From Blasia pusilla (lineage: Eukaryota), in assembly GCA_050084515.1 (NCBI GenBank), contig CM114271.1:33666001-33730000 (forward strand): a DNA stretch of 64,000 bases, in the 5' to 3' direction. The position numbers were made by a program, and so were the translations under genes. Position 1 is the first letter of the stretch, and every line of letters starts with the position of its first letter. Below are positions 3,001 through 64,000 of this stretch, in pieces. Below the pieces are notes generated by a model. That model did not search any database and was not told where the DNA came from. It was given only the letters and a program-made list of their open reading frames with translations.

Positions 3001-4128
3001 ACAGAGTTCTTCGGAAACTAAACGGATCTTGCAGCGTTCAAAAGTTAGGTCTAGTTGCCAAGAGCGATTAATGGCTTACGTACTCACAAGTACTAACTAG
3101 TATATATAATATTAGTGGAGAACTCCTAATAGATAAGTCGTACTATTATTTCGCATTTGGAGCTCTTCCTATTTGCCAAGTGGTTCGGTTGTTACATTTA
3201 ATTTTGTTATATATGGGAAAAAGAGAAAATAAAAAATTAGTGCTATGTTAATTTTTTATCTTAAAATTCTCTTTAGACTTTTTTCATGTCTCCTTATAGT
3301 TTTCCTAAGTTTTCCTCCTATTCATAGTTTTGTAATCCTAAGAGAAATTTCCCTTCATTTTTTTCCAAGTGAACACTCCTACTGAAATTTTCCCAATCTT
3401 CCAAAAAAAATTATTATTATTGTTGTTAAATCAAGCTTGGTTGGACGGGAAATTCAAAATATTTTTTGGGAGAAAACTTAAGTTTTAGAGTCAAAAGAAT
3501 CACTTTTTTAAATGATGAGAGGTAGTATTGTGACAAGACTTTCTCTTCTGTTTTTTGAAAATAAGGGAATTTAAGTTATTTTTTTCATCCTCATAAATAT
3601 TCAGCCCAAAATGTGTGTATATTATTATTGGCATTAGGTTCTTGAATGCTTAACTCCAAAATTGGTAGTTCTCCACTTTTGGGCTTGCCATAAATATCCA
3701 ACTTAATCTTTTTCAAGTTAAGTCAAATTTTCTATCGTCAAACACATTTGGTCATATATATCCAATTGAGAATGTTTTCGTGACTGCAAATCTTTTATCA
3801 AACATAGCCCACCAATATTTTCCCATTGTGTTACGTTATTCTATTTCCATTCATCTAACCTAAATTACAAGTTACTTTGAATTCTTCTTACCATGATCCT
3901 TAACCATTGAAACCAGGGCATGCCTATAAGTTTCCAACTTATCTCCAAAGAGAGAAAAATGGAGTTTTCCAACATAAATTTTCTTGCTAGTTTTGATTGA
4001 AATAATATCTCTTTTCCCTTATCTCGATCAAAAACTGATTTCCCTTATTTTGAAAAACTATTCTCATCCTATCATCATTGTATTTTACTTCCTCATAGTC
4101 TTAAATTATTTTTCCTTCTCAACGAAGC

Positions 4129-9489: not shown

Positions 9490-10020
9490 AATTTCAACTC
9501 AAGATGACATAGTTGCACAAGATGAAAAATGAAAAGACCTTCTTTTCATTGAAGGTTTAATTGTTCGCGTCCAAAAATGACTTTTGGTAACAACTCCATT
9601 TTACTTGAAATTTTGCAAGGATGCTAGATGCACTATGGGGACCATGTGTGCCAAATATCAGCTCAAGATGACGTACTTGGACAAGATGAAAAAAAAAAAA
9701 AAAATTTCATTGAATGTTGAATGGGTTGGGTCCAAATATGAGTTAGTAATATGTGAGCTTTTGGTCACAAGTCCATTTTGGTTGAAACTTTGCAAGTGAG
9801 CTACATGCACCTTTGGGAACATGTGTACCAAATGTCATTTCAAGATGACATAGTTGCACAAGATGAAAAATGAAAAGATCTTCTTTCCATTAAAGGTTTG
9901 AGGACGCGAGTTCAAAAAATGAGTTAGCAATTTTTGAGCTTTTGGTCACAAATCCATTTTGCAGAAAAATTTTCAAAAGAGCTACATGCACAATGTGGAT
10001 CATGTGTACTAAAATTTTAA
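9490..10020. repeat. Tandem array, about 3 copies of about 170 bp
   Basis: tcaagatgac(a/g)ta(g/c)ttg(c/g)acaagatgaaaaa at about 9500, 9663 and 9840, each followed by similar ttttggt.aca...ccatttt blocks. Confidence 0.8.
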
Positions 10021-13000
10021 AATTATATTTATAATTTAAGATAATATTTAATTTCAAGATTTAAGTATAATTTCTGCTTTTTAAAATCTTAAAAAGAATA
10101 AAAAAATATTCTAAATAAGATCCATCTCCCCTAAATAATTTCACTATTCCACAAAACGTTCAAATAATAACTATTCTTCCTCTTCCACTCTTCCAACCAA
10201 AATAAAATTCATTAACTAAATTCTTAATTAATTTTAATTAAAAAAAATCATTTGCCTCTTTCCATTCAAATTCATTTTCCTTTCCCAAAATATCAGATGT
10301 GAATTAATACACTTATTTAAAAAAATCTAATTATTCATTTCAAATTTTAAATATAATTTATATTTTCTAAAATCCTACAAGTGTAACTACATTTCACTCT
10401 TCTCAGTAATTACACTCCTCGATTCAAATTTAAATGATATCCTAGTCCCATAAGTAATTTTATCCTTCCATAAAATTCAAACAAAATCTATTCCTTCTCC
10501 ATGAAAATTTAATTTTCCTTTCCATTAAGTATGAATCAAGGCACAACTTATTTATTTATTTTATTTATCACAAATTTTCTAGTTCAGTAATATTTATATT
10601 CATCTATTATAATATTAAATAATTAATTAAATGATAAGTAAATTTTGATTTCTATTCCAGTTAAAATATGTTGCCTATTTTGTCCTATTATGTCAGTATC
10701 TCATCGTATTATAGATATGGGGTTTCCAATTATCATATACATTTACAAAATATGAAATAATTTTTTTTTGAAAATATGAATTCATAATTTTCAAATAATT
10801 TTTAATATTGTAATGATTAAATCATTCCCCTGGTTCTACTTTTCACTTTAATATAGGCCCATTGGGAAAAATTTCAAAATACACTTCTTGGATATTTATT
10901 ATTTTTTATAAAATAATTAATAAGAACTCCATATATCAGGTATAAGTAAAAATATTTTTAAAATATGTACTTTTTTTAAATAAAATAAATAAATTTATAT
11001 CGAATAAACCTTTCAATCATCATACCTTCTACCTTACCCAAGGACTTATAACCCTAGAGATTTTGATGATGGTTTAGCACAAGTTATTGAGTTGGGTTGA
11101 GGGCGTCCCTAACTTCCATGGATTCAACCCCGAGCAAAGAAGAAGTTTTCAGACTCTCGATTTTGGAGATCTATGGCTATTCCATGGATGAGGTCTCCTC
11201 GATCGTACATGTCAATGATGTGGACCAGCCACGCTTGCATAGCCCGATCAATCCTCTTATGACAAGGGATTTCTGCGTGAAGCACCCATCTATGTTCACT
11301 TTAGGGTTAAAGTTTGATCGGAGGCTACGATGTCCCAAACTGAAAGTGAAATTGTCTTGCTCTTGGGTTTTCTTGCAATACGTAGGTGGTGCATTACTAT
11401 CAGGACCGTGGAAAGATATGCCGAAAAGGTCATAGAGTCTTCTGACCAAGCTTATCTACAAGTTGGACACTTTTGAGATAGTAGCATGGCCTTTTGAAGA
11501 CAATATGGATGCCAATAACAAGCTTTACATGTGCGTGTCACGTAGCAAATCATGCATTTGGGACAGTTGTTTGCCACGAGGGGCCCTCCTTTAGTCTTTT
11601 AAATTTATTAATATATCATGAATAGATTCTTGTATACCTGTTATTGTAGAATATTCATGTTATTGGGATTGCCTTCATCCAATCCGAAAGATCTTGCACT
11701 TGTGTGCTCTGATTGAGAGGTGTTGGGGCCAACATCAAAGAGGCATGATACACAACTACTTGATATGTTGAAATAAGATCATATCAACCTCCTTCACGAG
11801 ACGACCCTCAAGTAGAGTCGTCTCGGGGGTGAGTTCTCCCACGTTACCCTTTGCTCTCCATCGTAGCAGTTCATCCACCTCTTGCTCTCGTCTTCCCATG
11901 ATGTGTTGATATGCCTTCCTCCATTGCTCAGTGTGGTCAACCATTATAGCACTTTGCCTTCTATGGAGGTCATCTCTAGCAATAGATTCATTCACAAGCC
12001 TCTCTATCTCTCTCTTAGTTTGTCGTGCTCCTTAGATAGTTGTTCATAATTCCCCTTCAAAACGTTGAATTCCGCAGCCAAATCAAAATTGCGTTGGGAA
12101 TTTGTTATTCAACTCTCCAACTGTTATTCGCTATTATTTGGAGCACTCTCCCCACGAAACGTTCGAGGAAGAGCACCGCTATTTACAAGGCGATAAGAAC
12201 TCTCCCTGGGTCCATCTAAGCTCATATTATGACCTACATTGAGGTTATTCAAAACATCTCATCTATCCTTCGTTCCCATCTGCACTCGCCCTTCATCTCC
12301 ACTCTTGTCATGTATCTCTTCTTCAAGAGGGTGATTTGTTTTGTGTCCATCAAAGGAAGATAGTATGCCTCTAAGGCTTCTTGACAATCCACCTTGCTGA
12401 TAATGGCCTCATGACGATCATGGTGATGAAGCTTCCCCTCTTGGTCGTTTAGACTTTGGTGGTGGGATTATACTATCTTCTTATCTGGGTCTCTTATCTC
12501 TTCTCGAAGACCCCTCATCTACATCGCCATACTAAACCTCCATATCCTTCCTCAACTCCGCGACTTTGAGCTAAAAAAATACCTTGCTCACTAACTTCCT
12601 ATTTCTCTTGGGGTGGGGGGGGGGATCTTCATAATTTGGGACCATTGAATAAAGCCCAATCTTTTGTCCACTCATCTTCTTCCACTTTCATTGCAAATTC
12701 TCCAATCGTATGCTCTAGCCACTTCAACCGCGACTTCTTGAACTCTCCTTTTAGAACTTGTGGATCAATGGCGCTATCTAAGTGCGCCTTTACTTTATTT
12801 TCTGTGATGAATTGTGAGACCATCTTCTTGTCTCCATGTATCAAGGGGTTCTTCCTCTCTTTCGTCATCCTCATTGTCGTGAGGACGACGATCTTCATGA
12901 GATGGCAACTCTATTTTTTCTTTTATCAAAATATAAAAAGAAAGGATCATTTAGAAATGATTCTAGTAATAGTGACACGATGACACAAGATACATCTATG

Positions 13001-13222
13001 GATCAACCAAGCTTCATCATTTACAAAAATTCAAAATAACACATTCATCTTTTTCAATCAAGTCTTCCATTTCTCATGAAAAATATCCAATACTCAAACG
13101 GATTTACAATCACACTACCACAGTTACTGGCCTTAATCGCAAATATACATCATGTACATCTAATATTTTCGCATTTGCTATGATATATGCAATAAGATAC
13201 TCTAGGCTTTTACGATCAGAGA

Positions 13223-13350
13223 TGTCGTGCGCATACACATCGCTACACAACATACATTGCTATCACCAAACACACACACAAAAATGCACAATCCCATGCT
13301 AACTCATGGCATCCAAACAACGAGACGAGAAGTATCAAAATATCTCCAAT
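13223..13350 (-). repeat. Terminal repeat B2 (element 3' end)
   Basis: Near-identical to 13849-13976 (catacacatcgctacacaac...cccatgctaactcatgg...aaaatatctccaat). Confidence 0.9.
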
Positions 13351-13846
13351 TAAAATAAGGTCAAATCTCTCTCATAACACCATAACTCTCACATGTGTGC
13401 ACTCTCACATGTCTCTCTCAATGTCAAACCAAACCCACTCTTCTAATGAGAGGCTTGGGTTACACTCACAAGGCAAGGGATCATAGCTCCGCCGCCTCGT
13501 GCCAAGAGGTTCAACAAAGAGAGAATGAGCTTGCAAGCTCTCTCTCCTTGAGGTATACCCCTCCCCTCTCCCAAGCTCTCTCCATGGTAACCTATGCTTT
13601 CAAGTCATCTTCGTGGCTCTTGACCTGATGTAGGAGGTCAAGGGCCACTTCCCAAAATAGAAAGTCAACATATACTTAAAATGGTACTTACCTAAAATAG
13701 CAAGTTTCTCAATATGGCTCCAAATGAGCCGAAACGAAGGATCTCCCGGGGCATCAACAGGTCATCCTCGACCTCCTGAGCATGTCCTCCACTACTCACG
13801 AAGGCGCTCTACTAGATCTTACCGATCTATCCTAAAAGATGTGACA
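13351..13846 (-). repeat. Repeat A2
   Basis: Colinear with 23700-24202 and with the reverse complement of 54007-54526; on the element strand it starts TGTCAC. Confidence 0.9.
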
Positions 13847-13848
13847 AT

Positions 13849-13976
13849 TATCGTGCACATACACATCGCTACACAACATTCATCGTTGTTATCGAACACA
13901 CACACAAACACACACGATCCCATGCTAACTCATGGAACCCAAACAGCGAGATGAGAAGTACCAAAATATCTCCAAT
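13849..13976 (-). repeat. Repeat B1, preceded by a polypurine tract
   Basis: Copy of B2; the element strand reads ctAGGGGGGcg (13977-13988) directly upstream; joined to A2 by the dinucleotide AT. Confidence 0.88.
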
Positions 13977-14156
13977 CGCCCCCCTAGCTGGTGGTTAGGT
14001 CCCTCTAACTCCAGATAGCCATCTATCCCTACCTACCATGACATACATCTCTCGGACGCTAAGAGCAAAAAGGCAGGGTGCTCATGTGGCCCCATTGTTA
14101 GTCGCCTTCTTATCATCCATGTCACAAACACAAGTGGGAATCTAGAACTACCTACT

Positions 14157-14447
14157 CTATGTACATCTGGGACACATCCATCGTCCCTGAGGAACCCTAG
14201 TGAGAGGTGGCGTCAAACATGCCATATGCCACCCTCTTGAACATCCATCACAAACTAGCATAGTGGCTGCACCACGGGCAGAACCACACAACAATGTACT
14301 ATCAATGTCAGGAAGGTGACATGATGCATAGTTACGCACATGGTCCTTCCAAATCATACCATCGCGTCCCTCCAATAAGAGGACATCAGATGGAAAAACC
14401 TCATGCACTCTCAAGATAGTGCGCCTTGCAGTCACATCCAAGGTCAT
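14157..14447 (-). pseudogene. Integrase C-terminal region plus PHD finger
   Basis: ...CGSARGAATMLVCDGCSRGWHMACLTPPLTRVPQGRWMCPRC matches the C4HC3 PHD pattern (first Cys lost). Confidence 0.88.
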
Positions 14448-14480
14448 GGGTACCTTCTGCTGTAAGTAGGCATAGTCTCC

Positions 14481-15420
14481 CTAATGAAACCTCCGGATGG
14501 TAGATCGATAACCACCCCCCTGAATAGTCACATACCTCAACGTATCCCGATGCTGCACAATCGCCAAGTTCTCAAACGCCATAGGCATCACTCTCCAAAA
14601 CAATTCAGCCCTTTGAGAACATGCTCGCATCCATATTTTAGGGTTATCAAGGTTCAAAACCTCACCAACATCTTGACAAATGGCCGCAGGTAAATCCGGC
14701 TCTCGGCCATAAAGTAGCAAGAACGTTGAGAAAGACGCTAAGGATGCCCGCTTGCTGAATCTATATCCCATCGCCAACCAGGGCAACTGGAGGTCCCAAT
14801 CTCCTAGGTGACCTCTCTGCAAGCCATACTTAAGTAATCCTCTCTTCACCGTCTGCACAACCCTCTTTGCTAGTCCATCCGCCTCAGGATGATCTTGCGA
14901 AGTGGTGTAGTGATCGATCAGCGCCTCATCACACAAGGCCTGAAACTTTGTACCCTGGTTTGTCAACACCTCAATTGGTGCACTATAATGACTCAACGCT
15001 CGATCTAGGAAGGCAAATGCTACTCCCTCACTCGCTTTGTCAAGCAATGCAACCAACTCTATCCACTTCGAGAAGTGCTCGACCACCACCAACACATAGC
15101 GACTATGGCCCTCTTTCAAAGGTAAAGGTCCTACAAAATCCAAACTCCATCTATAACCTAAACCCATGATCAGAAGTGGATGAAACTGTGGAGTCGGAGC
15201 ATTGAACAATGCCCGGACCCGATCACAAACTATACACCTAGCAACAAACTACTGAACGTCAGTCTGCAAGCCTCGCCACCAACACTGTACCTGGGGCAAG
15301 CTATATGTCCGCTTCACTCCAAAATGACCCAACAGCTCATGGGCATGACGTACCAAACGTGCTCTCTATGAAGGATGAGGCACTACACGTACTCTACCAT
15401 CCTCCAAAATGTGCAACACA
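14481..15420 (-). pseudogene. Gypsy DDE (rve) integrase
   Basis: WSLDFVGPLP...YVLVVVEHFSKW...EVLTNQGTKF...HPEADGLAKRVVQTVK...DWDLQLPWLAMGYR; upstream H/C zinc-binding remnants. Confidence 0.92.
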
Positions 15421-15739
15421 TGTGTATCCTCCCACCGGAATCGTCTGGCTCGCTGTAGGACTCGATCCCGCTCTCTAGCACCCACTGAACGCTGCCAATA
15501 CGCAGGTACTCCAAGAGAACTTCATCGTCGTGAATATCTCGCCAACAGTTGTCTCCTCACCATCCTCTGGATCTAAGAAGTCTCCATCAGACCTCGCCAT
15601 CAAAGTCTCAGCAATCTGACTCTCCATAGCCAACAAGCTCAAATAGGCTGACGCGTGCCATCTTGGCACCAACTCCTCATCACTCTCTCCATGCCAACGA
15701 GCTCCCATCGCATCTCGCTGACTCGGGCATGGGTTAGGG

Positions 15740-16900
15740 TTCAAACCATCTGCATCCTGGTTGAGCGTCCCAAGTCTATGCACCAACTAGAAGTCATACT
15801 CCTGCAATACAAGAGTCCACCTCCCAAGCTTCCCTGTAAGTTTGTCGGACTCTGTCAACCACTTAAGTGGTTGATGATCAATAATGATAGTAAAGGGATT
15901 GTTGAATAGATAACACCTAAAATATGCGACACAGTGCAGCCAAGCACTCACCCTCATATGAGTTATACTTTGCCTCTGCAGCGTTATTCGAGTGACTAGC
16001 GTAAGCCCTCACGAACTCTCTACCATCATCGTCATGCTGGGTGAGCACGGCTCCAAGCCCCAACATGCTCCAATCGGTTTGCAATTGGAAAAGACGCCCC
16101 CCCCATCGGTCTCCTCAATATGGGCGCAGATGTTAATCTGTCCTTGAGTAGCTGAAATGCTCTCTCCTGGTCAGCAAGGTCAACGACTTCGCAATCGAAT
16201 TGAAACCCTTGAGGTACCATCGATAGAAGGTCACCAATCCCATGAATGCACGAACTTGTCTCACATCTATAGGGCGTGGAATGCGTGAAATAACCTCTAC
16301 CTTTGTCTGCTGCATACCAAGGCCACCTGGGTATATCGTATGACCTAGATACTCAATCCAATCGTTGAAGAACTTACACTTGCCTGGATGTAGCTTTAGC
16401 CCATGTAATTGCAATCGTCGAAACACCTCCTCTAGATGTCGCTCATGCTCCTTAACCATTGAGCTAAAGACTACCATGCCATCAATTTAACACCTAGCAA
16501 AATCTAGACCTGCCAAGATCCTATCCATGACCCTCTGAAACTCAGCCGGGGCATTCCTTAACCCAAATGGTATGAACCGCCACAGGTACAAACAATCCTT
16601 CCCATGAGGATCGATGCCCCAAAATTCCGTCTTCGACATGTCCACCAATCTGATAGGCAGCTGATGGTATCTAGCTCAAAGATCTAACAAGCTGAAGACC
16701 TTTGCATGCCCAATAGCATCAAAGATCTCCTCAAGGGTTGGCTTGTTATACCTATCGGACTTCGTCTGCCGATTGATAGGTCGGTAATCTCCACACATCC
16801 GCTTATCCATCCAATTACCATACACATCCTTCTTGGGGGGCATGATAGTGACATATGCATACTCTCCATGTGACATCTCCACTAGCCTTGCTCAAACCAA
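15740..16900 (-). pseudogene. Gypsy reverse transcriptase and RNase H
   Basis: KRMCGDYRPIN, FSLLDL, IPFGLRNAPAEFQRVMD, degenerate *IDG (YIDD), KCKFF..IEYLGH; RNaseH LQTDWSMLGLGAVLTQ...YNSYEGECLA. Confidence 0.93.
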
Positions 16901-17479
16901 GCTCTGACTCATACTCTGAATTAGAGCATTCTCCATGTCACTGTACCTGTAGGGTTGTTGGAAGATCAGCGTGTCACTCGACAACTCAATGCGGATCTCT
17001 TGACCCTTCAGCATACCCAAATCCTACATACTAAATGCAAAACAACTCCTATAACTCCTAAGGAACATGTGTATCCTGTGCCGCTCTCCTCGTGTCAACT
17101 TAGGGCCCATATTTGGATCCCAAGTCTCCATCGTGACTACGGTAGGACTCTCTGGCGTGGGTGTCAGTGGTTGCTATGGTGCAACCCCCTCTCGGACAAG
17201 AGAACTTGACTGCTCCCCTGCATCCAACTGCAAAATTGGATCTCCCCTACATGAAGTACCCAGAACCACGCTCGATGTTGTGGTTGTCATCTCCTGGCAT
17301 ACCTGCAAAGCATCTCAAGAAGTCCAAGGGTGTCTCTCTTGATCATCCCCGGTGTGTCGATCTCCTCGAGTCTCACCCCTAGCCATTGCCTCAACCGTCT
17401 CGGTAGGCATGGGGCTCACCAACGCAACAGGTGTGATCTGTCGCATCCTCAAACGATGCTACTCAGCTACTCCTAAGAA

Positions 17480-18415
17480 AAAATCCATGTTAAGCAGTTC
17501 AGGTCTATCGCCTAACCCAAGACATGCGTCATGATGCCTCTAATAGTGACGGTACTGCCATCACTCCTGTGGGGAATCCCATCGCTCACTCTCGCTCATT
17601 GGCATTGGGCTCCACCAACTGCTGTACCTGGTCATCCCAAACCAAGCCAGGCCCGACCTCCTTGAATGCATAGGAAGCGGGAAAACTCACCAATGTGGGA
17701 AAGGCTGCTCGTGGCATGCCAATTCTGTTGGCCACAGTCAGCGACGATCGCTCATCGTGCCTAGCTGCCAGTGATCGATGTGCCAAAATAGAATCTACCA
17801 ACAAGGGACGCTCCACTCTTACGTACGCCCTCTGCAAAACCTCATGTGGCACCAAGTTGGTCCACCAAAGATGCGGGCGATGTGCTCTTGAACTTACACT
17901 CGCCGCATCCAACAACATTGCCAAGCCGATCCATGCGTGCATCTGATACGCACTCGTCACCACGCGGGACCTTGAATTGCCCAAAATTGGCACATTCTCG
18001 AGAATGTATGCTAAAGAACAAGACTGATGCTCTTGTAAATGTTGCAAGATCCGCGTCATCTCCCAAAATAACCTAGACCAAGAGTTAGCTAACCCACTAC
18101 CTCGTCCAACACTCGATTGGCCCTAACACGGCCAACCAGCAATGACCAAGTCTATGGTCCCTACCCGCTCAAAGTCCTATGCCCCCAACAATGAAATGTC
18201 GCTCGGTAGGGAACTTCGGTAGCCGTGGATGGCGGACGCAGACAACAAGTTGGGAGATTAGAGGCATAATTGCGCCACATGGTAAAGTGAAGCGCGCCTT
18301 GCAACATTATGAACCTCCACGTACAAGTACTGCTGCACGCGCACTCCTGCCTACAAAACAACATCTAAACCAGTGCCAATCCCTCCAAAGAGATTGAGCA
18401 CGCAAATACCCTCCT
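17480..18415 (-). pseudogene. DNMT3-like C5 cytosine DNA methyltransferase domain within pol
   Basis: Manual translation: motif I VLNLFGGIGTG (18369-18401), YLYVEV, DI, motif IV DLVIAGWPC*G (18123-18152), LFWE, motif VI YILENV, motif VIII LDAASVSSRAHRPHLWWTNL, motifs IX/X ERE*AMGFP...VLG*AIDLNCLTW. Confidence 0.93.
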
Positions 18416-18819
18416 TTGGGATGGATCACAAAATTGAGGTGGTGTCGAAAGGGGTCATAGTAGCACTCGTGGCTACCTCGGTTTCTCTGACCTGTCACGC
18501 TCTGGTGTAAATGTCTCGCTCCATGCAGTCTGCATATGCTAAGCAACTAAGAGTCGAAGCTTCTCAGTCGAGCCCCAAAGCGGCACCTCTCCTCCACGGA
18601 ATGATACAGCTACCATGACACTCCTCTATATATAAATTTCAGGAATGGGAGTGTCCTCTGAGTGGACATATCCCTCAATCAAATCACTAGGCCAAGTGAT
18701 GGCGCTACTAAATGCTGCTAAGGTTTCCATCTCTCCTTGCGGTCGTCCGATCACTCCATCAAACGGGTAATAAGCTAAGGCACCCATTACTAGACTGCCA
18801 TCTTGGTCTATAGGACGCT

Positions 18820-19200
18820 CAATCCTCCCAGTAATCCAGAGAAAACCCCATCGGGTACAACACTACTCCACCAACCAAGACGTCGTAGGACTCTACATCG
18901 ATTACTATCGCCTTAACTTGCACCAGGGACTTATCTGTAGGATATCCTAGGTGAAGTCTCCCCACGACCTCCTATCGGATGAAATACTGTGTGTTACTCG
19001 CTCCACCCAAGGATGTCTGTATGTGTAATGGATAACACTCCACATCGGCTCTCGTCAAGCCCAATCCTCTGAATGCCGATTTCCCCAACATCAGGGGTTA
19101 CGCTCATGAATCCAACAATATGCGTTGAAGACTTAAAACTCTACCTCCTCGACTCACCAAGTGGAAGACCTCGCCTCGATTATCTAGCAACACAATACCA
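18820..19200 (-). pseudogene. Retropepsin-type aspartic protease
   Basis: RILLDS*...PLMLGK and DVESYDVLVG; the second copy keeps RVLLDSGVQPLMLGK. Confidence 0.75.
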
Positions 19201-19779
19201 GGAGCGGCCATGACACACTCTATCGCGGGCCTAGCGGGCATCCTCGCCATCCTAGGAGTCGCAGACTGCCATGAATCTGACGTGGACGGCCCAAGCATAG
19301 GCTCCAAGGGCAGGTCCATCACCTTCTCTGCAATCACCCCTAAGTGTGACGCATGCAGGAACACCAACTCCACGTTCACATAGCGTAGCGGCCACGTAGA
19401 AAACCTCGGCGGGGGTATCTCCCAATGTCACAACATTAGAAGGAGAAAATAAAGGAGCGCGGTACACAACAGTGGCCGCCCCCAACAACGTGCTCAACAC
19501 ATGCTTCTCCTGAGCATCAGCAATAAGAGTCGTTGCACTCGCTTCTCCCATCACCCTCCGTGCTTGCACACCAGCAACATCACCAACTCTCCAGGAACTC
19601 TGATCAATATCCATCAATGGGGTCCTTATTGCCTCATACAACGTGAAAGACTCAGGAAGCTTGGTTTGTTTCTTGGCTTCCCCTTGGTGTGGATCCAACT
19701 CTACGGCTGCTCCACACGTTCCAATTGCGGCGGCCTACATCTAGGCAACCCCGCTCATCCGACCAGGATCCTCCATATC

Positions 19780-20860
19780 TCTAGCTACTCCATATGATGT
19801 CGATGCCACCGATCTGGCATCGAGTAGTAACCTGAGTGCCATAGCGGCAATTTTCTACTGTAGCTGCTATATTTGGCAGCCATCCCAACCTCATGCCCGA
19901 CGTCTCCCTCGATGAATCTAGGTGGTCAAACTCTACCTTCTTCACGGGAACCTCCATCACCCCCTCGAGCAACTCCAGCTCCTCGTCCCCTAATGAGACC
20001 ACCTGGTGCACGACCTCCATGCCCACGTACCCGGACCAGCTTCTCGCTCTGGTGCCCTCTCTGGCCCTTGGTCTAGACGTACTCGGGGTGTAAGCTGAAA
20101 CATCCGACACGTGTGTGACCGTACTTCTGACAATAGTCACACTGATAATCTCCTGGTGCAGCACCATCTCCTCCACCATGTTGAGGCATGCATCCATGAC
20201 CTTGACGGGTGCAATTGTGTTGGTGATGGGCTCCACTGAATGCCCAAAAACCCTAAACCTGGCGGCGGCTGCACCACATATGACGGCGCGGATCTCTATG
20301 GCACAGGCTCTCAATAACTTCCATGTGCTCGTGGTGCCACAATTGTCTCTTGGAATCCACGTTCATGCACTCGTGGTGCAGATACTCGTGCTTGCTCTCG
20401 CCTAGAGCTCATGGTGGCTACGCTCTCCTCCTCCATGTTGCGCTCAATGTTCTCGATAGTCCTAAAAACATCTCTTAACGTGGGTGAGGTGTTCATAAGA
20501 AGCATCCCCCTCCCGCATGTGTGTCCCTAGGGTTTGGTCCAACATCGCGTACCATGACTGGATAGTGTGGGCCTCTGTCACCCCTTGAGTGACGTTAATC
20601 AATCTGCATAAGCGAGTGTAGGCCTCAAGAGGCCTCTCTAGAGTTCCTAGCCCATTGTGAGTCACACCAATTCCTAGACTCCGCAATGAAGTCGCATAAC
20701 TCTATAGCGCCTATAACGCCCAAAAACCTACGCGGTCCTCTACCCCGGTCATCCATCTTGTACTCCCAAGCGGTAGGACCACTAATTGTGATGCACTAAC
20801 ACACTTCTCTATACTCTCCCTCTCGTCTGAAGATGACACAGAAGAAGGTCGAGGTGGTCC
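19780..20860 (-). pseudogene. Gypsy gag, degenerate, with about 370-bp internal deletion relative to copy 2
   Basis: Homologous to 55742-57090; EAYTRLCRLINVTQGVT; CCHC knuckle CDYCQKYGHTRVGC. Confidence 0.8.
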
Positions 20861-21945
20861 CTCATGTGGAGACCCTCGAAACCTCGCGCCACTCTACGTA
20901 AAACCTCTAGAGCTACTGCCGGGTCCACCATCTCGCCTCTCAAAGTCCCAAAATGACACCATGATGACCCTTATACCCCTCTCATGCGATCACTCCCAAC
21001 CTTACGAGTAATCACTCAATCACTCAAACTAACATGCGGCACTAAATCTACACTCTCTCTCACTGAGAAGGGGGTTGTGCAACAACAAGCAGCGTGGTGC
21101 GGCAAATCAACTACTGTCTTATCATCTCATGAACAACATATACTCTCAACAGTGGACACCCCAAACAAGTCTATGTCCCCTAAACCTGTATATCAACGAT
21201 GCTCTTAGCATTTGCACGAAATCCAATATCCCAAAAAACTACCCAATACCTGGAATCCCCTAACACGTACAAGCAAAAGACAAGAATGGGTAACCTGAAC
21301 AAATATCGATCGCTCCTTAGCAACTGTGAACTTCATCTCTAACTTGGTCGTGATGAAAAAATCCTCCAATCAGCAGGTCGTACCCCTATGGTACCAACGA
21401 TGCTCAAATCTCCTCATTGTGCGGTGCGGCACTGGCGTCACGAAACGGCTATAAAATGGCACGAAATTCGATAATTGGGGTGCGGCACTCCGCGGCATAC
21501 TCTCCTCAATCAGAAATACACACGGTCTACACCTTAGTCAAGGAGTAGCTCCGCGATTGAGACGGTGCGATGTCGCCACAAGCGGCACGACACAGAAATC
21601 GGCGACGCGTTGCGGCTACAAGCGTCATGGCACAGTAATCAATCATCGTCAAGCGGCTACCAATCACAACATAGAAGAATGAAATGAAAACTCAAAAACC
21701 ATCAACCCGAGGTCACCTGCCATCAATGGTTGATGACAAAATTGGGATGACGGCGGCGGCCACAACAAAGTACGTGGTGGCGGCTCAAGTCAGAGAATCA
21801 ACGATCGTCGTAGAAGACCGTCCACTCGTGAATGGCGAGTCCCAAGACGGTCGAGCGGCGCTAGGAGGCGGCAGCTGGCGATGGTCGTTGGTGGACCGTT
21901 GTCGTGTCGAGAATCTTTCTTCGAGCAATCGGCCTTCTAGCCGGT

Positions 21946-22532
21946 AGATGCAAAATCGATGCAAGGTGAACTCTCTAATAAGTTCTCCTTTTTCAATACA
22001 AAATTATGATGTACACTCTCCATTCTCTCATGTATCACAAATGGAAATCACTTCTTCGTAACATCGGACCCAAATTCTTAACTATAAAATCCCTATAAAC
22101 TATTTTACGTTTTGTACACACGAGGAAGATAGCACAATTAGTGTTAAACCTTACTTGACCAGGCCTATTGACATCCATGGATCGCTATATAAGGACATAC
22201 AAAGTACAATCCCATGTCCTTCCATATGTGACGATAGGAAGAATCAGGAGTTGGAGATTGCATGACTGGTTCATGAACGCCTCCCAAAGTGATAAACTAA
22301 ATAGCGAGTGAACCAGGTGCCTATCTACAAAGAGTACCTTGACATGGTAAGGATTGAGGAAAGGAAATTCAAAAGTGCTCCATCCCTATCCATGCGATGA
22401 CATTCTCTACTCTCCTCAAGAATGGATTTTGGCGGAGTTATTCTCCCAAGAGGGGTAATCCACTCTCATTGGGAAAGTAACAAGCCAAAACATCCGCTAT
22501 TTCAGTATGACTAAACTCCTCTAAGGTGACAA

Positions 22533-22563
<31 letters not shown>

Positions 22564-23129
22564 CAACACCACACTCTAGAAATCTCTCGAAGGTTAGACT
22601 ATGGTCAAGTTACTCTCCCAAGAGGGTGATCCACTCTCATTGGAAGAGCAAGCAATCCCAAAGCCATACACTCAAGAGAGACGCGAGAGACTGAAGATGT
22701 GGAATAGAAGGTGCTGAACCCTTGAAGGTCCCTCCTCTTTATAAACTCACAAGGGATCCACAAGAGTACGAAATAGAACTTATCTTATCTTGTGCCACAT
22801 GGCTTCCTCTCAAGGCTTAGCCAATCACATTTTGACACAAGTAGATTTCCTCTTATCTCTTCCAAAATATCCTCTTTTACCCACATGATATTTTCCAAAT
22901 TACCCCAACTAACCTAGCCACCAACCAAGATTACTTTTGCTTTTCATTAAAGCAACTACTTTACTTTTATTAAGTCATCTTTTATTTATTACCTCCTTTT
23001 CCTAAAGTTGGGCCCGCATAAAAGAGGCACCATAAAGAGGTTTAAACATAAGAATCTCCTTTTTCTAAGCCAATTTACTTAATACTAATGAAACTCTATC
23101 TAACACTTAATGACGAAGGAGTTTACACA
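21946..23129. mobile_element. Probable solo LTR of an unrelated family nested in the Gypsy 5' region
   Basis: Absent from copy 2; ends ggagtttacaca; contains a (CA)n run, a duplicated ctcccaagag...ccactctcattgg block and a TATA-like site; candidate TSD ccggt/ctggt; left boundary uncertain. Confidence 0.5.
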
Positions 23130-23684
23130 CTGGTTGATTTTACTATACGACACCGTTGAGGGTGAAGATGGATGGCGGACGGAAACAGTGGACTCTAGAT
23201 GGCGACCGTTGACCGTCGAAGATGACTATGACGGCAACAGCCGCCTCCGGTATAGCGGCTAGTTTAGGGTTGAACAATTTTACCCTAAAACTTGCCTGGC
23301 AATGGCAGGTTTGCAAGATCAACCATAACTTTTTGCTCACAGCTTAGAATCGTGCATCGTTTCTTCCACAACGGATAAAATTGGCAGCGCTTCCGTGCTA
23401 ATTTCTTCCACAAAAAACTTCAGACCTTTAAAATCACAAACCAGCAAGCTACTTGGTGCTCTCAAGAGCATTAGAATGGGGAAATCTGCCCCCAAACTTC
23501 ATCTCTAAAGAAATTTGGGTAGCGCTTCCGCGCGCCATTCTTCTACACAAAAAATTGGCAATGGAAAACTGTAAAACAAGTAGCGTTCGCTCTGGTGAGC
23601 ACTCCCATGAGCCGGTGAACAAGGAACATTGTCTCCAACCTACAACAATAGTGAGTAACCAGCGAGCTGCTCCATTGAAGCTCT

Positions 23685-23699
23685 CTCATTCTCTCTTTG
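23685..23699 (-). promoter_or_regulatory. Self-priming primer-binding site
   Basis: Element strand CAAAGAGAGAATGAG directly after A1; complementary to CTCATTCTCTCTTTG inside repeat A (13515-13529; partly deleted at 23854-23866). Confidence 0.75.
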
Positions 23700-24202
23700 T
23701 AAAAGAAGGTCAAATCTCTCTCACAACACCATAGCTCTCACATGTGTGCACTCTCACATGTCTCTCTCAACGTCAAACCAAAACCCATTCTCCTAATGAG
23801 AGGCTTGGGTTACACTCACAAGGCAAGCAACCATAGCTCCTCCGCCTCGTGCCAAGAGAGAATGAGCTCTCAAGCTCTCTCTCCTTGAGGTATACCCTTC
23901 CCCTCTCCCAAGCTCTCTCCATGGTAACCTATGCTCCCAAGTCACATGCGTGGCTCTTGACCTGATGTAAGAGGTCAAGGGCCACTTCCAAAAATAGAAA
24001 TTAGATCAAATACTCAAAATGGTACTTACCCAAAATAGCAAGTTCCTAAATATGGCTCCAAATGAGCCGAAATGAAGGAGAAACCTGCTCTCTCAAGTTT
24101 CTCGGGGCCTCAACAGGTCATCCTTGACCTCTTGAGCATGTCCTTCACTACTCGCGAAGGTGCTCTAGTAGATCTCATTGATCTATCTTAAAAGACGTGA
24201 CG
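23700..24202 (-). repeat. Terminal repeat A1 (element 5' end)
   Basis: Homologous to A2; not followed by B. Confidence 0.9.
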
Positions 24203-24206
24203 GAGA

Positions 24207-25537
24207 GATTCGGAGCTAATGCCCACTTTGGAATTATTCCAAATAAGTAAATCTCACATTGGCTTGGGCATCCCTAACAGCGAGGTTATATGTCACATAG
24301 TTGAAATTCTTCACAATCATTCCTAGGGCATAGATTTTAGTGGCCTTGCTAAAAGGAAGATTCTCAGGCCCTACTATCAACTTTGGTGCTATATATCCAG
24401 CATGATTTTTTTTCATGTTGTCATCATCTATCACGTGAGTTCAAGTTTTTATCAGTCCATATAGCATTTTCCCAATCTCCAACGCTCATGTATGGGTTAG
24501 AGTTGGATCCAAAATGGATGAAAATATTCCTAGCATGGAGGTCGGTATGAAAAATCTCACGCTTGTTGGCAGTCTCCATGGTACCAAGAAGAAAAACCAA
24601 AAATTGGACAACATTTTATGCTTTTTCGAGACATCGGATCTTTTCCAACTCTCCTATATAAACTAGCCCCGTCGTTCTTCAAGGCATGACATGCTTGCAA
24701 CCAATTTTCAAGGTATCCACCATTCCAATATGGATAGATGGTACGCAATGGATCCTTGATCAACCTTCTCACCATGCGAACAACACCGCAATGTAAAATA
24801 CTCGCGAACAACTCCTCACGCATCATCGATTTTCTTGAAAATAATATAGATGATTCCTTATACACATTCATGCAATAGAACATATCTGCACTAAAGCCAA
24901 TGGTTCCGTTGATTTTACAACGGTACACAGTTCAGTGTAAATCGGATCCCACAATATCGCTCGGATCAGCTCCTACTTCTACATTACTGTCAAAAATCCA
25001 TATTACTCCACATAGAACTATGAATGTTTGCCCCACAAAAGTACCATGTCCCTTGAAAAGACATTGAGCATTTCTTAACTACACACTGAATCTTTCTATG
25101 AAAGCCGACTTTGCAACATTCAGCTTCTCATCCTCATATGTCTTGAGATCGATATACGCTCTCTCAAGGTGAATACCTTGTTGGACACAAATTTTAGTTA
25201 GCCTATCGGCCTTTTTGGCATCCTTTTCTTACTTAAATATCTTGGACAATCTGTGTAATTCCAAGGTGTAATCATGGAAACCATCCATACTCTTCAAAAT
25301 GTAGGATCGTCTCTTCTTTAATGAAAGTTGGAAAAACCTATCTCACCATGCCTCTCTTATGGCCATGTTGAAATCATTCTTGGAATTTACTCTTTTCCTC
25401 TTGGCACTATCATTACCCGCTCTCAATGATCTAGCCCCACTAGACATTACCCTTAGATGAAGAAAAAAAAAGGTCTCTTGAAAAAAGGAAAGAAATGTAC
25501 GAATTGACATAAGAAAGTACCGAAAAGATAATGACAT
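24207..25537 (-). pseudogene. Protein kinase pseudogene; its C-terminus continues at about 13140-13222
   Basis: YPYWNGG, catalytic loop IFHTDLHARNIFI, VGDWE (DFG equivalent), GYIAPKL (APE), KATKIYALGMIV (subdomain IX); reads through the TSD as ISSESLSDRKSLEYLI (subdomain XI). Confidence 0.75.
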
Positions 25538-26554: not shown

Positions 26555-26850
26555 TGGGTGCACGGGCTGGGCGCGGGCCTTGGAGCCCACACGCGGGCTA
26601 GGGCACGGGCCGTGGAGCCCGCACACGGGTTAGGGTGCAGGCTAGGGACGGGCCCTAGAGCCCAAAAGTGGGCTAGGGCCCGACGGAGGCCCAAGCTAAA
26701 AATGGGCGTGGAGCGTGATGCGGACTAGGAAAGCAAGGGCAAAACGCTCGGGTGGCATTGGCCCAGGTGCGGGCCGTGGGCATGTGGGCCCATGGAGCCC
26801 GCACAGACATGTCGGTCCTTGGGACGGACATAAGTCTGCGTGCAACCTTG
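26555..26850. mobile_element. hAT-like MITE remnant
   Basis: Repeated cgggc.../gagccc motifs; ends gggacggacataagtctgcgtgcaaccttg like other copies. Confidence 0.6.
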
Positions 26851-27816
26851 AGCTAGATACCATTAACTACCTATCATATTGGAGGTCGGGCAGAATACGA
26901 CATTTTGGGGCATCAATCCTCACCGGAAGGATTGTTTGTCCTAGTGGTGCTTCTTACCATTTGGGTTAAAGAACGCCTCAACAAAGTTTCAAAGGGTCAT
27001 GAATAGAATCTTCGCAAGTCTAAATTTTGCTAGATCTCACATTGATGACATCGTTATCGTAGTCATTAGGGCCACGGTTGAGAAACATGAGCAACTCAGC
27101 GACATCTAGAGGAGGTGATTTGACAACTGTAGTTACATGGGCTAAAGCTGCATCTAGGCAAGTGCAAGTTCTTTTACGATCAGATTGTGTATCTGGGTCA
27201 TATGATATACCCAAGTGGCAAGTGACCTTGGTATTTAGTAGACGAACATAGAAGCTATCTCATACATTCCATGCCCTATAGATGTGAGTCAAGTTCGTGC
27301 ATTCATGGGATTCATGAACTTCTATTGACGATACGTCAAGGGTTTTAGTTCAATTTTGAAGCCACTAACCTTGCTGACCAAGATGGATTATGTGTGGCAT
27401 TTGGGAGGATGAGCAAGTCTTAGAGATAGCATTTGAATTGCTATCTTGACATCCGCGCCTACACTGAAGGGACCGATTAGAGGGCATCCTTATGATCCTT
27501 TCCAGTTGCATACAGATTGGAATATGTTGGGGCTTTGAGCGGTGCTCACCTAGCATGACGATGAGGGAAGAGAGTTCGTGGTGGCTTACGCTAGTCGCTT
27601 GAACAATGTTGCATAGGCAAAGTTTAGCTCGTATGAGGGTGAGTGCTTGGCTATAATATGGCCTATTGCGCATTTCAGGCATTACTTATTCGACATCTCC
27701 TTTACCATATCATTGAATATCAACCACTAAAGTGGTTGATGAAGTCCGGCAAGTTTATATGGAATCTTGCGAGGTGGGGGCTCTATTGTCGTAGGAGTAT
27801 GATTTCTAGGTTGTAC
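26850..27816 (+). mobile_element. Degenerate RT-RNaseH fragment of the same Gypsy family
   Basis: LPFGLKNASTKFQRVMNRIFASLNFARSHIDD, GKCKFFYDQIVYLGH, LHTDWNMLG, SYEGECLA; colinear with the reverse complement of 15790-16680. Confidence 0.85.
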
Positions 27817-32077: not shown

Positions 32078-34809
32078 AATTTCTCGGTGTCCTTAATTCT
32101 AAGATGGAAGGCTTCCCATATTATCCACTTATCCATTCACTTTATTTTATAGTTTTACACTTGTTTTCTATTCATTTGGATAAAAGAATGGTATAAGGAT
32201 TTCCATTAGCTAGAGCATAAACTTTCCATTTGCTGAGTAATATTTGAAGCAGATCATGTGCTGCTAGAAACCCTATAAGAAAGTTGAACGCCTTCATTTT
32301 GCTAGCATATATCTATAGCAATATTTCTTCCTTTGATGCCCTATTTTTATGAATTTCTTTTTTTACACTTAGGGATGATGGGTTTGAGGTTTGTAATTTA
32401 TTTAAATCAAAAAATAAAAATAATTCACTCATATGAAGTCGTGAAGATCATAACTTAACAAACATCAAACTAATTCACACAAATTATTTTCTTTTCAAGA
32501 AAAAAAATGTGTTTCCACATATGAAGAAAGTATTTCCATAGAGAACATTAGAGATTTTGTTCTCTCTGAACAAGAGGTCCTTTTCTTTCCTTTACTCCAT
32601 ACTATATCTATTTACTATCTTTTCTGACAACAATCTACAAGCATGCATCACACCTCATTTTGGTGATCAATTCTTTATATTCCGCCACCTTTACTCCTCC
32701 TTGTTGCTTTGGTTCTTGTATTTAGCAAGTTGTTCTTCCCACTCAAGGTTCATAAAATATGCCATAGCTTCAACCCTCTCTTCCTCATGTAGTTCATCAA
32801 TTCCACATTCTCTGTAGAACTTGTCAACTTCCTCTGCACGTTGCTTTAACTCTGCTTCCACTTGCTCAATTTTTTGCAGCTCTAACTCTTCCTCCAATCT
32901 CGCTTTTCTAATAATGATATGGGGAGGCTTTGTAGCCAAGTTTTGTTGATTTGATTGACTTAAAGCCATACGCATTTACTCAATACCCTTCATTCACAAA
33001 AGGAAGGAGCAAGTTTTAGTATTAGGCATTTTTACATATCTAACAAAGTCACACCTTCCAAAAAAACCTCAAAAGAACAAATAAAAACATGATCAACACT
33101 ATTGTACAAAGAAGAGTTGTCGACTATCCAGAAAATTCTCAATCAATTCTCTTTTAGTAAATTACATTTTCCATGATAGTCTTAACGGACACAAAGAAGG
33201 TATTCCAGCCATGTCAGGGTTATGCAATATCCACTTAGTTTAGGGAACTACATGGATGACACCTTAACAACAATAAGCATTTAGTATTGACGTAATCCCA
33301 GGGTATAATTCATAAGACACCTACTTACTGTCAATGAGTGGGAAAAAAAGTGGCTGGATGATTTTGTCTACACAAACAAAGATGCCATGGAAGTTACCTT
33401 CAATCCCCTAAGACCCTATAGACGCCAATGTTGGAGATGGGAAGCATTCCAGTGGCAACTGACAGGGCAACGGATATCAAGATAACCCACACTCCACCCT
33501 ACAAACCAGATAACCTTTCTATGACATGTGAATAAATACATCTTCACGAATGCAGCAAGAACCTCAATAGTGATTCTCACTTGATTCTTACGATACAGGA
33601 AAAACCCAAGGGAAAAAGGGGTATACGAGCCAATCAGAGGACCTATACACTGAAAGCCTTCTACGAGAGCCACAACTTTCAAAATCGGGCTCTAGTGTTA
33701 GAGAAAGCATTGAATTTCATGCTTCAATTGATTATGGATCCAGATGCATGGTTTATTGATACAATTAGTGGAACCTTTGTTCCACTAATAGTCTCTAAGT
33801 GACATGGTCACATGCAACACCAAAACCCATCTAATACACCTTGACGATACATTTTGAACTTATCAATGAAAATTTCAAGAAGCAGGTAACTAGAGAGACC
33901 AACTGACCCACCAAATACATAATCAAGCACTAGAGGCTGAATCATTTCGTATGACTTAGTACCATGTGACACCGAATACACTTATACAGATAAAGCTACA
34001 ACCAAAAAGTGACTCCCCATCTATTCAAGAAAGAACCGCAAACAATTGGCCACTAGTGTCATCTGGGGCCAATTGTAGAAACATAAGGCATTCCAGCAGT
34101 GCAACTCTACGGATTTCAAAAACATGCACGAAAGCTCTCAGGCAAACCTCCCCTAATTCTCTGCCCGCCCCTAATTCTTTGCCCGCGTCATCTAATAAGC
34201 CTACAAAACAAATGCGAAAATCAACAGACGAATGACCCATCCAACTGGTCCTTCATACGCTGTGGAGATGAATGTGTTCATAAACACATCCATCTCCAAG
34301 GTTCAGAGACATGACAAACCTAATACGTTACGGACCGAAAGCACTGGGGCTTCAACGATCAAAGCTTCGGATTTCAAAATGACCCTCCAATCCCCCTTCC
34401 AAACCACGAAAAGAATTTCATTTCCAACCGAATTACGTAATCGTGCACCACCGGAGGGCAAATCTCTGCAACGGAGGATTTAACGCATCACATAGATGAA
34501 TGTGTTCATAAACACATCCATCTCCAAGGATGTGCAGCCGATTGAAATTCTGCCGGGATTGGGAAATTCGTAGCAAAATCAGCAGCTCCGTCCTCCGCAG
34601 TTGCTCCGTCCTCTCTTATGGCAGAGCTCTCGCATGACCAATGTCCGGGGAGAACCGGGGTAACGTGTTGAGCTGGCTGGAAGAATTTGAGAATTTCAGA
34701 TTCAGTTTGTCACTTACCGGCCAAAAACCGAGGGTTCAGGGAGGGTTTCGATTGTATTAGTATCTGTTTAGCCGACTGGAATGACGAAATCTTCAAAAAT
34801 TGCCGCTCG

Positions 34810-34915
34810 GTTTTGTAGACACCGGAAACGTACCGGTTGTCACGAAAAAACTCCCCCCCCCGTTTTTGTAGACACCGGAAATGTACCAGTTGTCACGAAA
34901 AACTCCACCTCCCCC
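34810..34915. repeat. Tandem duplication of about 52 bp
   Basis: ttttgtagacaccggaaa(c/t)gtacc(g/a)gttgtcacgaaaaa occurs twice. Confidence 0.85.
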
Positions 34916-35509
34916 ACCCTGATGACGAATCTCTATGAGGACTAGGACTGCCTCCTCTCTACGAAGAGTCACTTCTGCTGGATTTATAAACTGTGCGATT
35001 TGAAATTCAAATCGCACAGCATTGGATGGTATGTATGCCATACCATCCACCCTACCATCCACATGGGTCTTAGATATCCGAGAGCGTCCCGAGCATCCAA
35101 GAGCGTCACCGTTGCCCGGAAAATGTAGCCGTGGGGCGGGTGTAGAGCATTCCGATCCGATGGGGGGAAGGGGTTTGAGGGACCCGTCACTGGAACCCGG
35201 GACAAGGGGGAGCAATAACTGATCTGCATTCTCTGACTATGGTGAGCGATCATTGAAGGATCCGTCCAACTCATCTGTAGAGCTAGCTTCATCAACATAG
35301 CCTTAGCTTCGATCATCACCGGAGCGAAACCTTCCAAACTTCCAACGCTTTGAGCGTTTGAGGAAATCACTGGCTTACGATCTCCCTCTCCCCTTACGTC
35401 CGACTCCTGAGCAGTGACGTCCGGCCTACGAATCCCTACAAGCTCTGCATTCTCATGCGATTAATTACGAATCGGTTGCGACACATCACCGAGAGTTACG
35501 CATCGAATT

Positions 35510-42400: not shown

Positions 42401-42637
42401 TAGATAGATAGATATTATACCTGCTGTGCTCAAGGTCGCTCCGCTTTCTCTCGTATGTTTGAGCACGGGGATTGGCCGGGAACCTGCTGACACTGCGCAG
42501 GAGCAAATCGGAGGTTGGCACCTCCGGTTCAAGGTCGAGGTCAAGGTCGCCACCTATCTCCATAGAAGACTACTCGTGATTGACAGATTCGGGAGTTCAC
42601 GGATTTGAAGGGGCCTCGGGCTCCCGAGTACGTGCGC

Positions 42638-63899: not shown

Positions 63900-64000
63900 G
63901 AGAAGGATATTCGGGTGTTGGATCTCTTTGGAGGGATCAGCACTGGGTTAGCTATTGTTTTGCACAATGCGCGTGCAGTAGTACCTGTACGTGGAGATTG
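63900..64000 (+). pseudogene. Start of the DNMT3-like domain (copy 2)
   Basis: EKDIRVLDLFGGISTGLAIVL (SAM-binding motif I), followed by YLYVE. Confidence 0.85.

Follow-up and report, generated by a model that had tools for sequence, protein, structure and literature searches.

The window analyzed here, a stretch of 64,000 nt from the genome of Blasia pusilla (assembly GCA_050084515.1, contig CM114271.1, forward-strand positions 33,666,001 to 33,730,000), harbors a decayed Ty3/Gypsy-type retrotransposon on its minus strand (13223-24202; all coordinates are those of the window). Its direct repeats are split, with one repeat (A1) at the 5' end and three (B1, A2 and B2) at the 3' end. This anatomy recurs in related elements, together with a conserved palindrome where B meets A, a polypurine tract (PPT) before B and a primer-binding site (PBS) after A. 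The element encodes a DDE integrase, and no tyrosine recombinase (Phage_integrase) was detected in its 20 open reading frames (ORFs) or in the ORFs scanned in two relatives, L001 and L003.

Organization and coding content of the element

Read 5' to 3' on the minus strand, the sequence runs from flank through A1, the internal region, a G-run (PPT), B1, the dinucleotide AT, A2 and B2 into flank. The features are listed in that order, followed by the start of a second family copy.

24203-24206, minus strand: putative target-site duplication (TSD), 5' side, TCTC on this strand
23700-24202, minus strand: A1, 503 nt, beginning CGTCAC, with a TATA motif at 23895-23889 and a PBS-complementary segment at 23866-23854 (repeats, blastn)
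23685-23699, minus strand: putative PBS of the self-priming kind, CAAAGAGAGAATGAG, immediately 3' of A1 (15/15 nt identical in copy 2, 54527-54541)
18456-23684, minus strand: leader and presumed gag/protease region, decayed, with no Pfam match in the present copy (residues 651-832 of L001 ORF1 match 19301-18762)
17526-18455, minus strand: Dnmt3-like C5 cytosine methyltransferase region, upstream of the reverse transcriptase (RT; weak Pfam match and tblastn)
15787-17170, minus strand: RT and RNase H, interrupted by stops and frameshifts (Pfam RVT_1 and RT_RNaseH; tblastn)
14481-15248, minus strand: DDE integrase core, rve (Pfam PF00665, E = 4e-9)
14157-14480, minus strand: PHD finger, C-terminal in Pol (Pfam PF00628, E = 6e-12)
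13977-13989, minus strand: polypurine-like G-run AGCTAGGGGGGCG abutting B1, presumed plus-strand primer (sequence; similar runs in relatives)
13849-13976, minus strand: B1, 128 nt (repeat finder, blastn)
13841-13855, minus strand: internal B1/A2 junction CACGA(T)A-AT-TGTCAC, a decayed GACA-NN-TGTC palindrome, with the AT spacer at 13848-13847
13351-13846, minus strand: A2, 496 nt, beginning TGTCAC, with a TATA motif at 13558-13552 and a PBS-complementary segment at 13529-13515 (repeats, blastn)
13223-13350, minus strand: B2, 128 nt, the element terminus ...GCACGACA (repeat finder, blastn)
13219-13222, minus strand: putative TSD, 3' side, TCTC on this strand, equal to 24203-24206
54007-54541, plus strand: start of copy 2, with A (54007-54526) running directly into the same PBS (54527-54541)

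Both repeat pairs are real and far above chance level: A1 (24201-23700) and A2 (13845-13351) are 85.2% identical over 515 columns (E = 6e-172), and B1 (13976-13851) and B2 (13350-13225) are 86.5% identical over 126 nt (E = 3e-37; both by repeat finder and blastn against the window). The A1-internal-B1-A2-B2 layout proposed by the initial annotation, an earlier reading of the sequence, holds at all of its coordinates when checked by repeat finder, blastn and reading of the strand. Two full long terminal repeats (LTRs) do not surround the internal region, since the 5' end consists of A alone and the 3' end of B-A-B; the related element L002 likewise lacks this arrangement. The element thus has the split direct repeats by which PAT/Ngaro-type elements are recognized.

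TCTC (GAGA on the plus strand) bounds the element at 24206-24203 and 13222-13219, so the enclosing GAGA duplication that had been claimed is present at both ends, and a 6-bp match, ATCTCT, results when both boundaries are shifted by 1 nt. Among 20,000 simulated random flanks with up to 3 nt of boundary slack, matches of at least 4, 5 and 6 bp arose by chance in 4.4%, 1.2% and 0.3% of cases, respectively, the exact shift behind the 6-bp version lying outside this slack model; we grade the duplication as suggestive. The putative TSD of this single complete, old copy is 4-6 bp long, and the 3' terminus is CA. Both genomic 5' ends (24202-24195 in the element, 54005-54012 in copy 2) read TCCGTCAC and start with CG, whereas A2, the read consensus at the B/A junction, L001 and L002 have TGTCAC, with TG at the internal junction. 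A flank search for an empty paralogous insertion site matched only the flanks themselves.

A Pfam scan of the 20 largest minus-strand frames returned, 5' to 3', DNA_methylase (weak), RVT_1, RT_RNaseH, rve and PHD, and no family other than these five. This order on one strand confirms the earlier identification as a Gypsy element with a DDE integrase; the succession of RT, RNase H and integrase is that of Ty3/Gypsy Pol and is found as well in the intact relatives L001, L003, P0013 and P0028. The DNA_methylase match is weak (18122-17586, E = 0.0096). By tblastn, the Dnmt3-like region shares 44% identity with the methyltransferase (DNMT) region of L001 ORF1 (E = 7e-69), and the RT/RNase H region shares 54-64% identity with L001 ORF2. 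With this support from L001, the polyprotein contains a Dnmt3-like C5 methyltransferase, as expected of the Gypsy-DNMT3 lineage. The position of this domain varies: it precedes RT in the window element, in L001 and in P0013, but is placed between RNase H and integrase in L003 (3061-9519).

The present copy is dead. Relative to the closest homologue (67% identity), its integrase retains the first catalytic D, while the second D has become N and the E has become K; 14 residues are absent just upstream of the PHD finger. An in-frame stop separates integrase from PHD, and further stops and frameshifts are numerous.

Recurrence of the layout in related elements

Within the window, copy 2 repeats the 5' architecture. 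As had been claimed for this copy, A leads into the internal region with no B between: a single blastn alignment runs on through 54527, with 54527-54856 matching 23699-23377 of the element at 81%. The internal region of copy 2 is interrupted by a nested Ty1/copia element (57090-62434, plus strand) and reaches the window edge at 64000. The same lineage is also represented by an isolated RT/RNase H fragment at 26848-27809 (plus strand; 74% identical to the element and 44% identical in protein to L001 ORF2), with no A or B repeats nearby.

Beyond the window, the integrase-PHD segment found 50 longer protein matches at E ≤ 1e-5. Nearly all of these homologues carry RT, RNase H, an integrase zinc finger, rve and PHD, several also carry PF00145, and the named sources are Chlamydomonas eustigma, Tetraselmis, Closterium, the liverwort Calypogeia and Sphagnum. 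The integrase D, D and E are invariant in 12 of 12 relatives, spaced by 60 and 35 residues. Searches of viral contigs with one protein and with an alignment found no relatives.

Three related loci, L001, L002 and L003, emerged from a scan of prokaryotic genome contigs and are clearly eukaryotic contamination of metagenome-assembled genome (MAG) bins. One MAG record supplied both L001 and L002, and another supplied L003, the bins being labelled as a cyanobacterium and a Minisyncoccia bacterium. L001 (9285 bp) has intact ORFs, of which ORF1 encodes an aspartyl protease and DNMT (PF00145, E = 7e-12) and ORF2 encodes RT, RNase H, integrase and PHD. Its Pol has the Ty3 Gag-Pol polyprotein as best PDB match (E = 7e-100), and its DNMT region has DNMT3A/B/C (E = 6e-8). 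A 127-nt overlap of its ends is an assembler product of collapsed repeats, and we rejected L001 as a real circle. L002 (2905 bp) is the 3' end of a copy 90-95% identical to L001. L003 spans 10,362 bp at 42% identity, with a Pol of 2152 aa that has an extra ~350 aa C-terminal to the PHD finger. Together with the window family, these loci represent three lineages sharing 42-55% Pol identity.

The repeat order was read in each. In L002, the Pol stop is followed by the 3' untranslated region, GCTAGGGGGGGCA, B1 (~106 nt), GC, A2 (~360 nt), B2 and 21 nt of unrelated flank, and its B copies do not differ from each other (100% identity over 106 nt). These identical copies, and the intact ORFs of L001 and L002, suggest that hosts with active copies exist. 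L001 runs through PPT, B, GC and A into the leader, and L003 has a G8 run, ~110 nt ending ...GCACGACA, GC and then TG at the contig end. The order PPT-B-junction-A is accordingly found in all four elements that cover it (window element, L001, L002 and L003; three lineages), B-A-B after the PPT in both elements that extend past A2 (window element and L002), and A leading directly into PBS and leader in all three that cover the 5' side (window element, copy 2 and L001). The A-internal-B-A-B arrangement is thus a property of the lineage. Its recurrence in copy 2 and L001-L003 means that a one-off rearrangement, the outcome that would have undone the initial proposal of a recurrent architecture, is not the case.

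Junction palindrome, priming signals and reads

Where B meets A, L001 and L002 read ...CACGACA GC TGTCAC..., L003 reads ...GCACGACA GC TG at the contig end, and the window element reads ...CACGATA AT TGTCAC.... GACA-GC-TGTC is a perfect 10-bp palindrome, and so is GACA-AT-TGTC, one transition from the junction in the window element. GACA-NN-TG(TC) stands at the B/A junction in four of four covering elements from three lineages, the form in the window element being decayed. B2 likewise closes with ...CACGACA in both the window element and L002, and the flank beyond it is unrelated. The palindrome is conserved across the three lineages despite unalignable A repeats: identity of A between the window family and L001/L002 is 0.46-0.48, against 0.46-0.47 for shuffles, and B is barely alignable (0.56-0.57 against 0.50-0.51). 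Within the last ~25 nt, the B repeats share TAGCGAT and, 11 nt later, CACGACA.

By contrast with the integrated ends, TGTC...GACA, the predicted ends of the complementary DNA (cDNA), namely the start of B and the end of A, show neither TG..CA nor an inverted-repeat relation. The integrated element begins with the start of A and terminates with the end of B, and these two adjoin inside the element at B1/A2. That the termini meet at an internal B/A site had been proposed before; they do adjoin there and form a palindrome, as would suit the opening of a joined form by an integrase.

A PPT immediately precedes B in four of four covering elements, as the motif GCTAGGGGGG in L001 and L002 and as the G8 run in L003, and the PBS immediately follows A in three of three (window element, copy 2 and L001). 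The 15-nt CAAAGAGAGAATGAG (23699-23685) is identical in copy 2, within a leader only about 81% identical. This PBS is the reverse complement of a segment inside A, 167-178 nt before its end. In A1 the complement is perfect over 13 nt (23866-23854; reached by 0 of 2000 shuffles) and in A2 over 15 nt (13529-13515). L001 has an unrelated leader start, TTGACAAAGAT, with a perfect 11-nt complement 178 nt before the end of A (0 of 2000 shuffles). Complementarity is thus significant in two of the three elements. In both families the complementary segment starts 28-29 nt past a TATA motif. RNA folds of three elements join the 5' end onto the PBS (z-scores -4.2, -4.9 and -3.3). Taken together, this looks like priming of the Tf1 type, by the transcript itself, rather than by transfer RNA (tRNA).

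A tRNA-type PBS was considered, with TGG stretches 26 and 39 nt past A1 as candidates, and rejected because, by eye, these stretches differ between the element and copy 2 and do not adjoin A. Ordinary sites are recognizable in the window: the copia element nested in copy 2, which has a normal LTR layout (LTRs ~94% identical over 274 nt; RVT_2 ORF at 60307-61746, E = 1e-76), shows the canonical tRNA-Met-type site TGGTATCAGAG immediately 3' of its 5' LTR and serves as an in-window control. With the PPT directly before B and the PBS directly after A, the LTR generated by reverse transcription would be B+A, and the counts above uphold this part of the initial annotation.

Reads carrying the same species label (one whole-genome shotgun (WGS) run, one contig set and two RNA-seq runs) were mapped to 13000-24400 at a likeness of at least 80%. 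Of 12.4 million WGS reads, 174,525 mapped, in identity classes of 542, 4756, 34,014 and 135,213; as most lie below 90% identity, the family is large, old and diverse. It is also very abundant in the host, where 2 Gb of reads give a depth of about 3000 (~2400-3100 over Pol, ~3200 over A2 and ~1300 over A1). C>T and G>A differences are in excess among the family reads, which would fit decay through deamination of methylated cytosines. Among the joints listed, the one from 13350 to 23726 is supported by 200 WGS and 12 RNA reads and joins the end of A to the start of B within a diverged subfamily. Where B ends (13223), 2456 loose read ends have a consensus equal to the start of A with an agreement of only 0.39, which we read as a mixture of B/A junctions and varied flanks. 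The RNA reads are strongly one-sided, first mates on the plus strand being in ~10- to 100-fold excess, which for stranded libraries means sense transcripts of the element. In both families, a GT-rich B (13223-13350 and 13849-13976 here; 2311-2416 in L002) comes after an A whose end is A/T-rich. We speculate that signals for termination or polyadenylation, active only in the A/B context, may come from B2.

Elsewhere in the window, tandem arrays occupy 35640-36294 and 9554-10013 (units of ~155-160 nt and ~180 nt, 61-93% identical to one another). A block at 34000-48000 is rich in G+C (0.47-0.56, compared with 0.32-0.40 in AT-rich stretches elsewhere in the window); two frames scanned in it (216 and 251 aa) had no Pfam match, and it may be another decayed repeat.

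Integration route and comparison with known systems

We favor, at a probability of roughly 0.5, the reading that the window holds a decayed Ty3/Gypsy-type retrotransposon of a Dnmt3/PHD lineage, in which the ends of a B+A cDNA are joined, the palindrome is opened by the integrase and the element is inserted in permuted form. Transcription would begin in A1, ~28 nt past the TATA motif; the 5' bases of the RNA would fold back on the site directly after A and prime the minus strand as in Tf1, and the G-run before B would prime the plus strand. The ordinary LTR reverse-transcription scheme would then yield a cDNA with B+A as LTR. The sites of the integrase would be the halves of the palindrome (GACA-NN-TGTC) at B/A within the LTR, not the cDNA ends, which would be joined, end of A to start of B, as in a two-LTR circle. 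Nicking of both strands of the 5' LTR palindrome after CA, 2 bp apart, would produce a pair of recessed CA-3'OH ends, each with a 2-nt 5' overhang, by our reasoning the geometry of 3'-processed retroviral ends. Inserted with a short target duplication, the opened ends would give A1-PBS-internal-PPT-B1-NN-A2-B2. Because the palindrome lies inside the LTR, cutting there would permute the provirus, and since the product contains two LTR equivalents plus a joint of A end and B start that is absent from the cDNA, end joining would be the simplest route. We put even odds on the broader formulation that, throughout a DDE Gypsy lineage found in green plants and algae, the integrase site has shifted from the cDNA ends into a palindrome of the LTR, with an obligatory end-joined intermediate and a permuted provirus as consequences.

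Several points weigh against this reading. We infer the end-joined intermediate, and with it the cleavage of the palindrome, by reasoning. If a two-LTR circle were cut at random, the mirror form A-B-A-internal-B should arise just as often; it is seen at neither 5' end in the window, and the short reads provide no census of junction types because the mirror form would give the same ones. The TSD comes from a single old copy and is suggestive, not strong (p about 0.04 for 4 bp). The genomic 5' ends (TCCGTCAC) do not match TGTCAC, perhaps because an ancestral CG was deaminated in A2 at a later time or because of the way in which the 5' end is made. L001 and L002 are one sample and one family. On the priming side, the segment complementary to the PBS is the expected transcription start site by prediction only, the fold limits were picked from the complementarity, so that the terminal helix is not an independent result, and the perfect complement in copy 2 measures just 8 nt (reached by 152 of 2000 shuffles; 15 nt when one G-U pair is allowed). 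Finally, the 12 RNA reads, from the two RNA runs, cross the A/B junction; transcripts hence reach B2, which an LTR-type scheme does not need and which a DIRS-like scheme would fit as well.

The same B+A cDNA could also be inserted without a circle, if the 5' LTR palindrome of the linear molecule were cut, the new ends inserted and the outer ends joined by the host. This route would give the same product from the same sites with no nuclear circle required, but every insertion would leave a chromosome break to repair, and we know of no precedent for it. We regard it as unlikely, although the present data fit the linear-cut and circle routes alike and cannot distinguish them.

Little credence, in our view, is due to a DIRS/PAT-like scheme served by a DDE integrase, in which RNA would run from inside A1 into B2, B1-A2 would act as the bridging template that restores B2/A1 in a circle, and the circle would be opened there. 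PAT and Ngaro have exactly this layout, sense RNA reads do cross A into B and reach B2, and the internal junction consists of the complete termini plus 2 nt. However, a PPT before B and a self-complementary PBS after A are signatures of LTR-type synthesis with two jumps, under which the LTRs should be B+A and B2 would not serve as a template, and RT, RNase H and integrase are Ty3-like.

Two further explanations are already contradicted. An ordinary two-LTR Gypsy element, with A alone as LTR and the B pair as an unrelated duplication or a one-off rearrangement (tandem LTR plus deletion), gains something from the age of A1 and A2 (85% identical), over which rearrangements could accumulate; it is highly improbable given that the order recurs in L002 (with identical B copies), L001 and L003 (PPT-B-A) and copy 2, that the same layout is reported for KnitGypsy-Dnmt3, and that the PPT adjoins B, not A2. 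Still more remote is a tyrosine-recombinase element of the PAT/Ngaro/TOC kind merely resembling Gypsy, which would account for the split direct repeats but is at odds with the lack of a recombinase domain in the ORFs scanned, the rve integrase with conserved DDE, the putative TSD and the best PDB match to Ty3.

The element belongs to the Gypsy-DNMT3 kind first described in Klebsormidium nitens. For KnitGypsy-Dnmt3 of that alga (de Mendoza et al. 2018), the Fig. 4c legend of PMC5890265 reports repeats of the DIRS type combined with Gypsy domains, and the Fig. 1e legend of the same paper defines the DIRS structure as A-coding region-B-A-B. Compared by description, the two share a Dnmt3-like methyltransferase in a Gypsy Pol and a DIRS repeat structure around Gypsy domains. 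The hosts differ, the repeats in that paper are a figure-legend remark that gives no TSD, PBS, PPT, junction or mechanism, and its main text has no occurrence of a PHD finger. A 2026 preprint (10.64898/2026.05.21.726589) names "streptophytes (Gypsy-DNMT3)" and, in its available text, leaves the repeats undiscussed. Split repeats with Gypsy domains are thus already in print, if as a legend remark, and the architecture is not unprecedented. In the open literature, Repbase and supplements aside, we found no description of a TSD, self-priming PBS, junction palindrome or integration route for a split-repeat Gypsy. The window element is a dead member of a known, barely characterized kind, and the mechanistic reading is new and testable.

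Available passages of PMC4157794 and PMC8969392 present A1-internal-B1-A2-B2 as the hallmark of tyrosine-recombinase elements lacking TSDs, in agreement with the initial annotation. PAT, Ngaro, VIPER and TOC1 have the identical layout, with the B1-A2 pair downstream of the coding region, but carry a tyrosine recombinase, no DDE and no TSD, whereas the window element encodes rve/DDE, lacks a recombinase and is bounded by a short putative TSD, and its RT, RNase H and integrase are Ty3-like, unlike theirs. Split direct repeats serve classification and curation guides as diagnostic of TSD-less DIRS-type elements, and the present lineage breaks that rule. Pipelines that expect two full LTRs would misplace its ends, calling A1 and A2 the LTRs, leaving B2 outside and missing the TSD. 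If the proposed route is true, split direct repeats would arise convergently without a tyrosine recombinase.

In Tf1/sushi and plant Tcn1 elements, the PBS beside U5 is complementary to the transcript start and not to a tRNA, as predicted for the window element, self-priming being predicted also for the plant Tcn1 and TAR lineages in the text available of PMC6317226. Unlike the present lineage, with its permuted repeats, PHD finger and DNMT, those elements possess a chromodomain and a complete LTR at either end. Predicted self-priming combined with Dnmt3 and PHD modules would make a compact system for studying the interaction of retroelements with host chromatin. The atypical Gypsy groups that had been suggested as comparators do not fit. 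Troyka, an animal lineage described in the consulted part of PMC12440569 with 3-bp TSDs, CG..CG ends and ordinary LTRs, shares the CG start of both genomic 5' ends here. It was rejected as a comparator because it is an animal lineage whose ends and TSD differ: the window element terminates in CA at its 3' end, its putative TSD spans 4-6 bp, no 3-bp TSD fitting CG..CG boundaries exists at the element ends, and that part reports no split repeats for Troyka. None of the features compared points to relatedness. Selgy, a short ordinary element in the corresponding part of PMC6317226, was rejected as well.

The closest analogy for the proposed integration step is the retroviral circle junction. Integrases of prototype foamy virus (PFV) and human immunodeficiency virus 1 (HIV-1) are reported to cleave palindromic LTR-LTR junctions (PMC1180852 and PMC1905944), and in both settings a DDE integrase would act on an internal CA..TG palindrome of juxtaposed ends. 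The retroviral palindrome is the U5/U3 circle junction, whose cutting restores the linear genome, whereas that of the window element lies inside the LTR (U3), where cutting would permute it. The conserved GACA-NN-TGTC inside the LTR thus provides a testable hypothesis for a retroviral-type integrase acting on an internal site. If the reading is true, this lineage would be a natural and successful case of the circle-junction integration that was once proposed for retroviruses and then abandoned.

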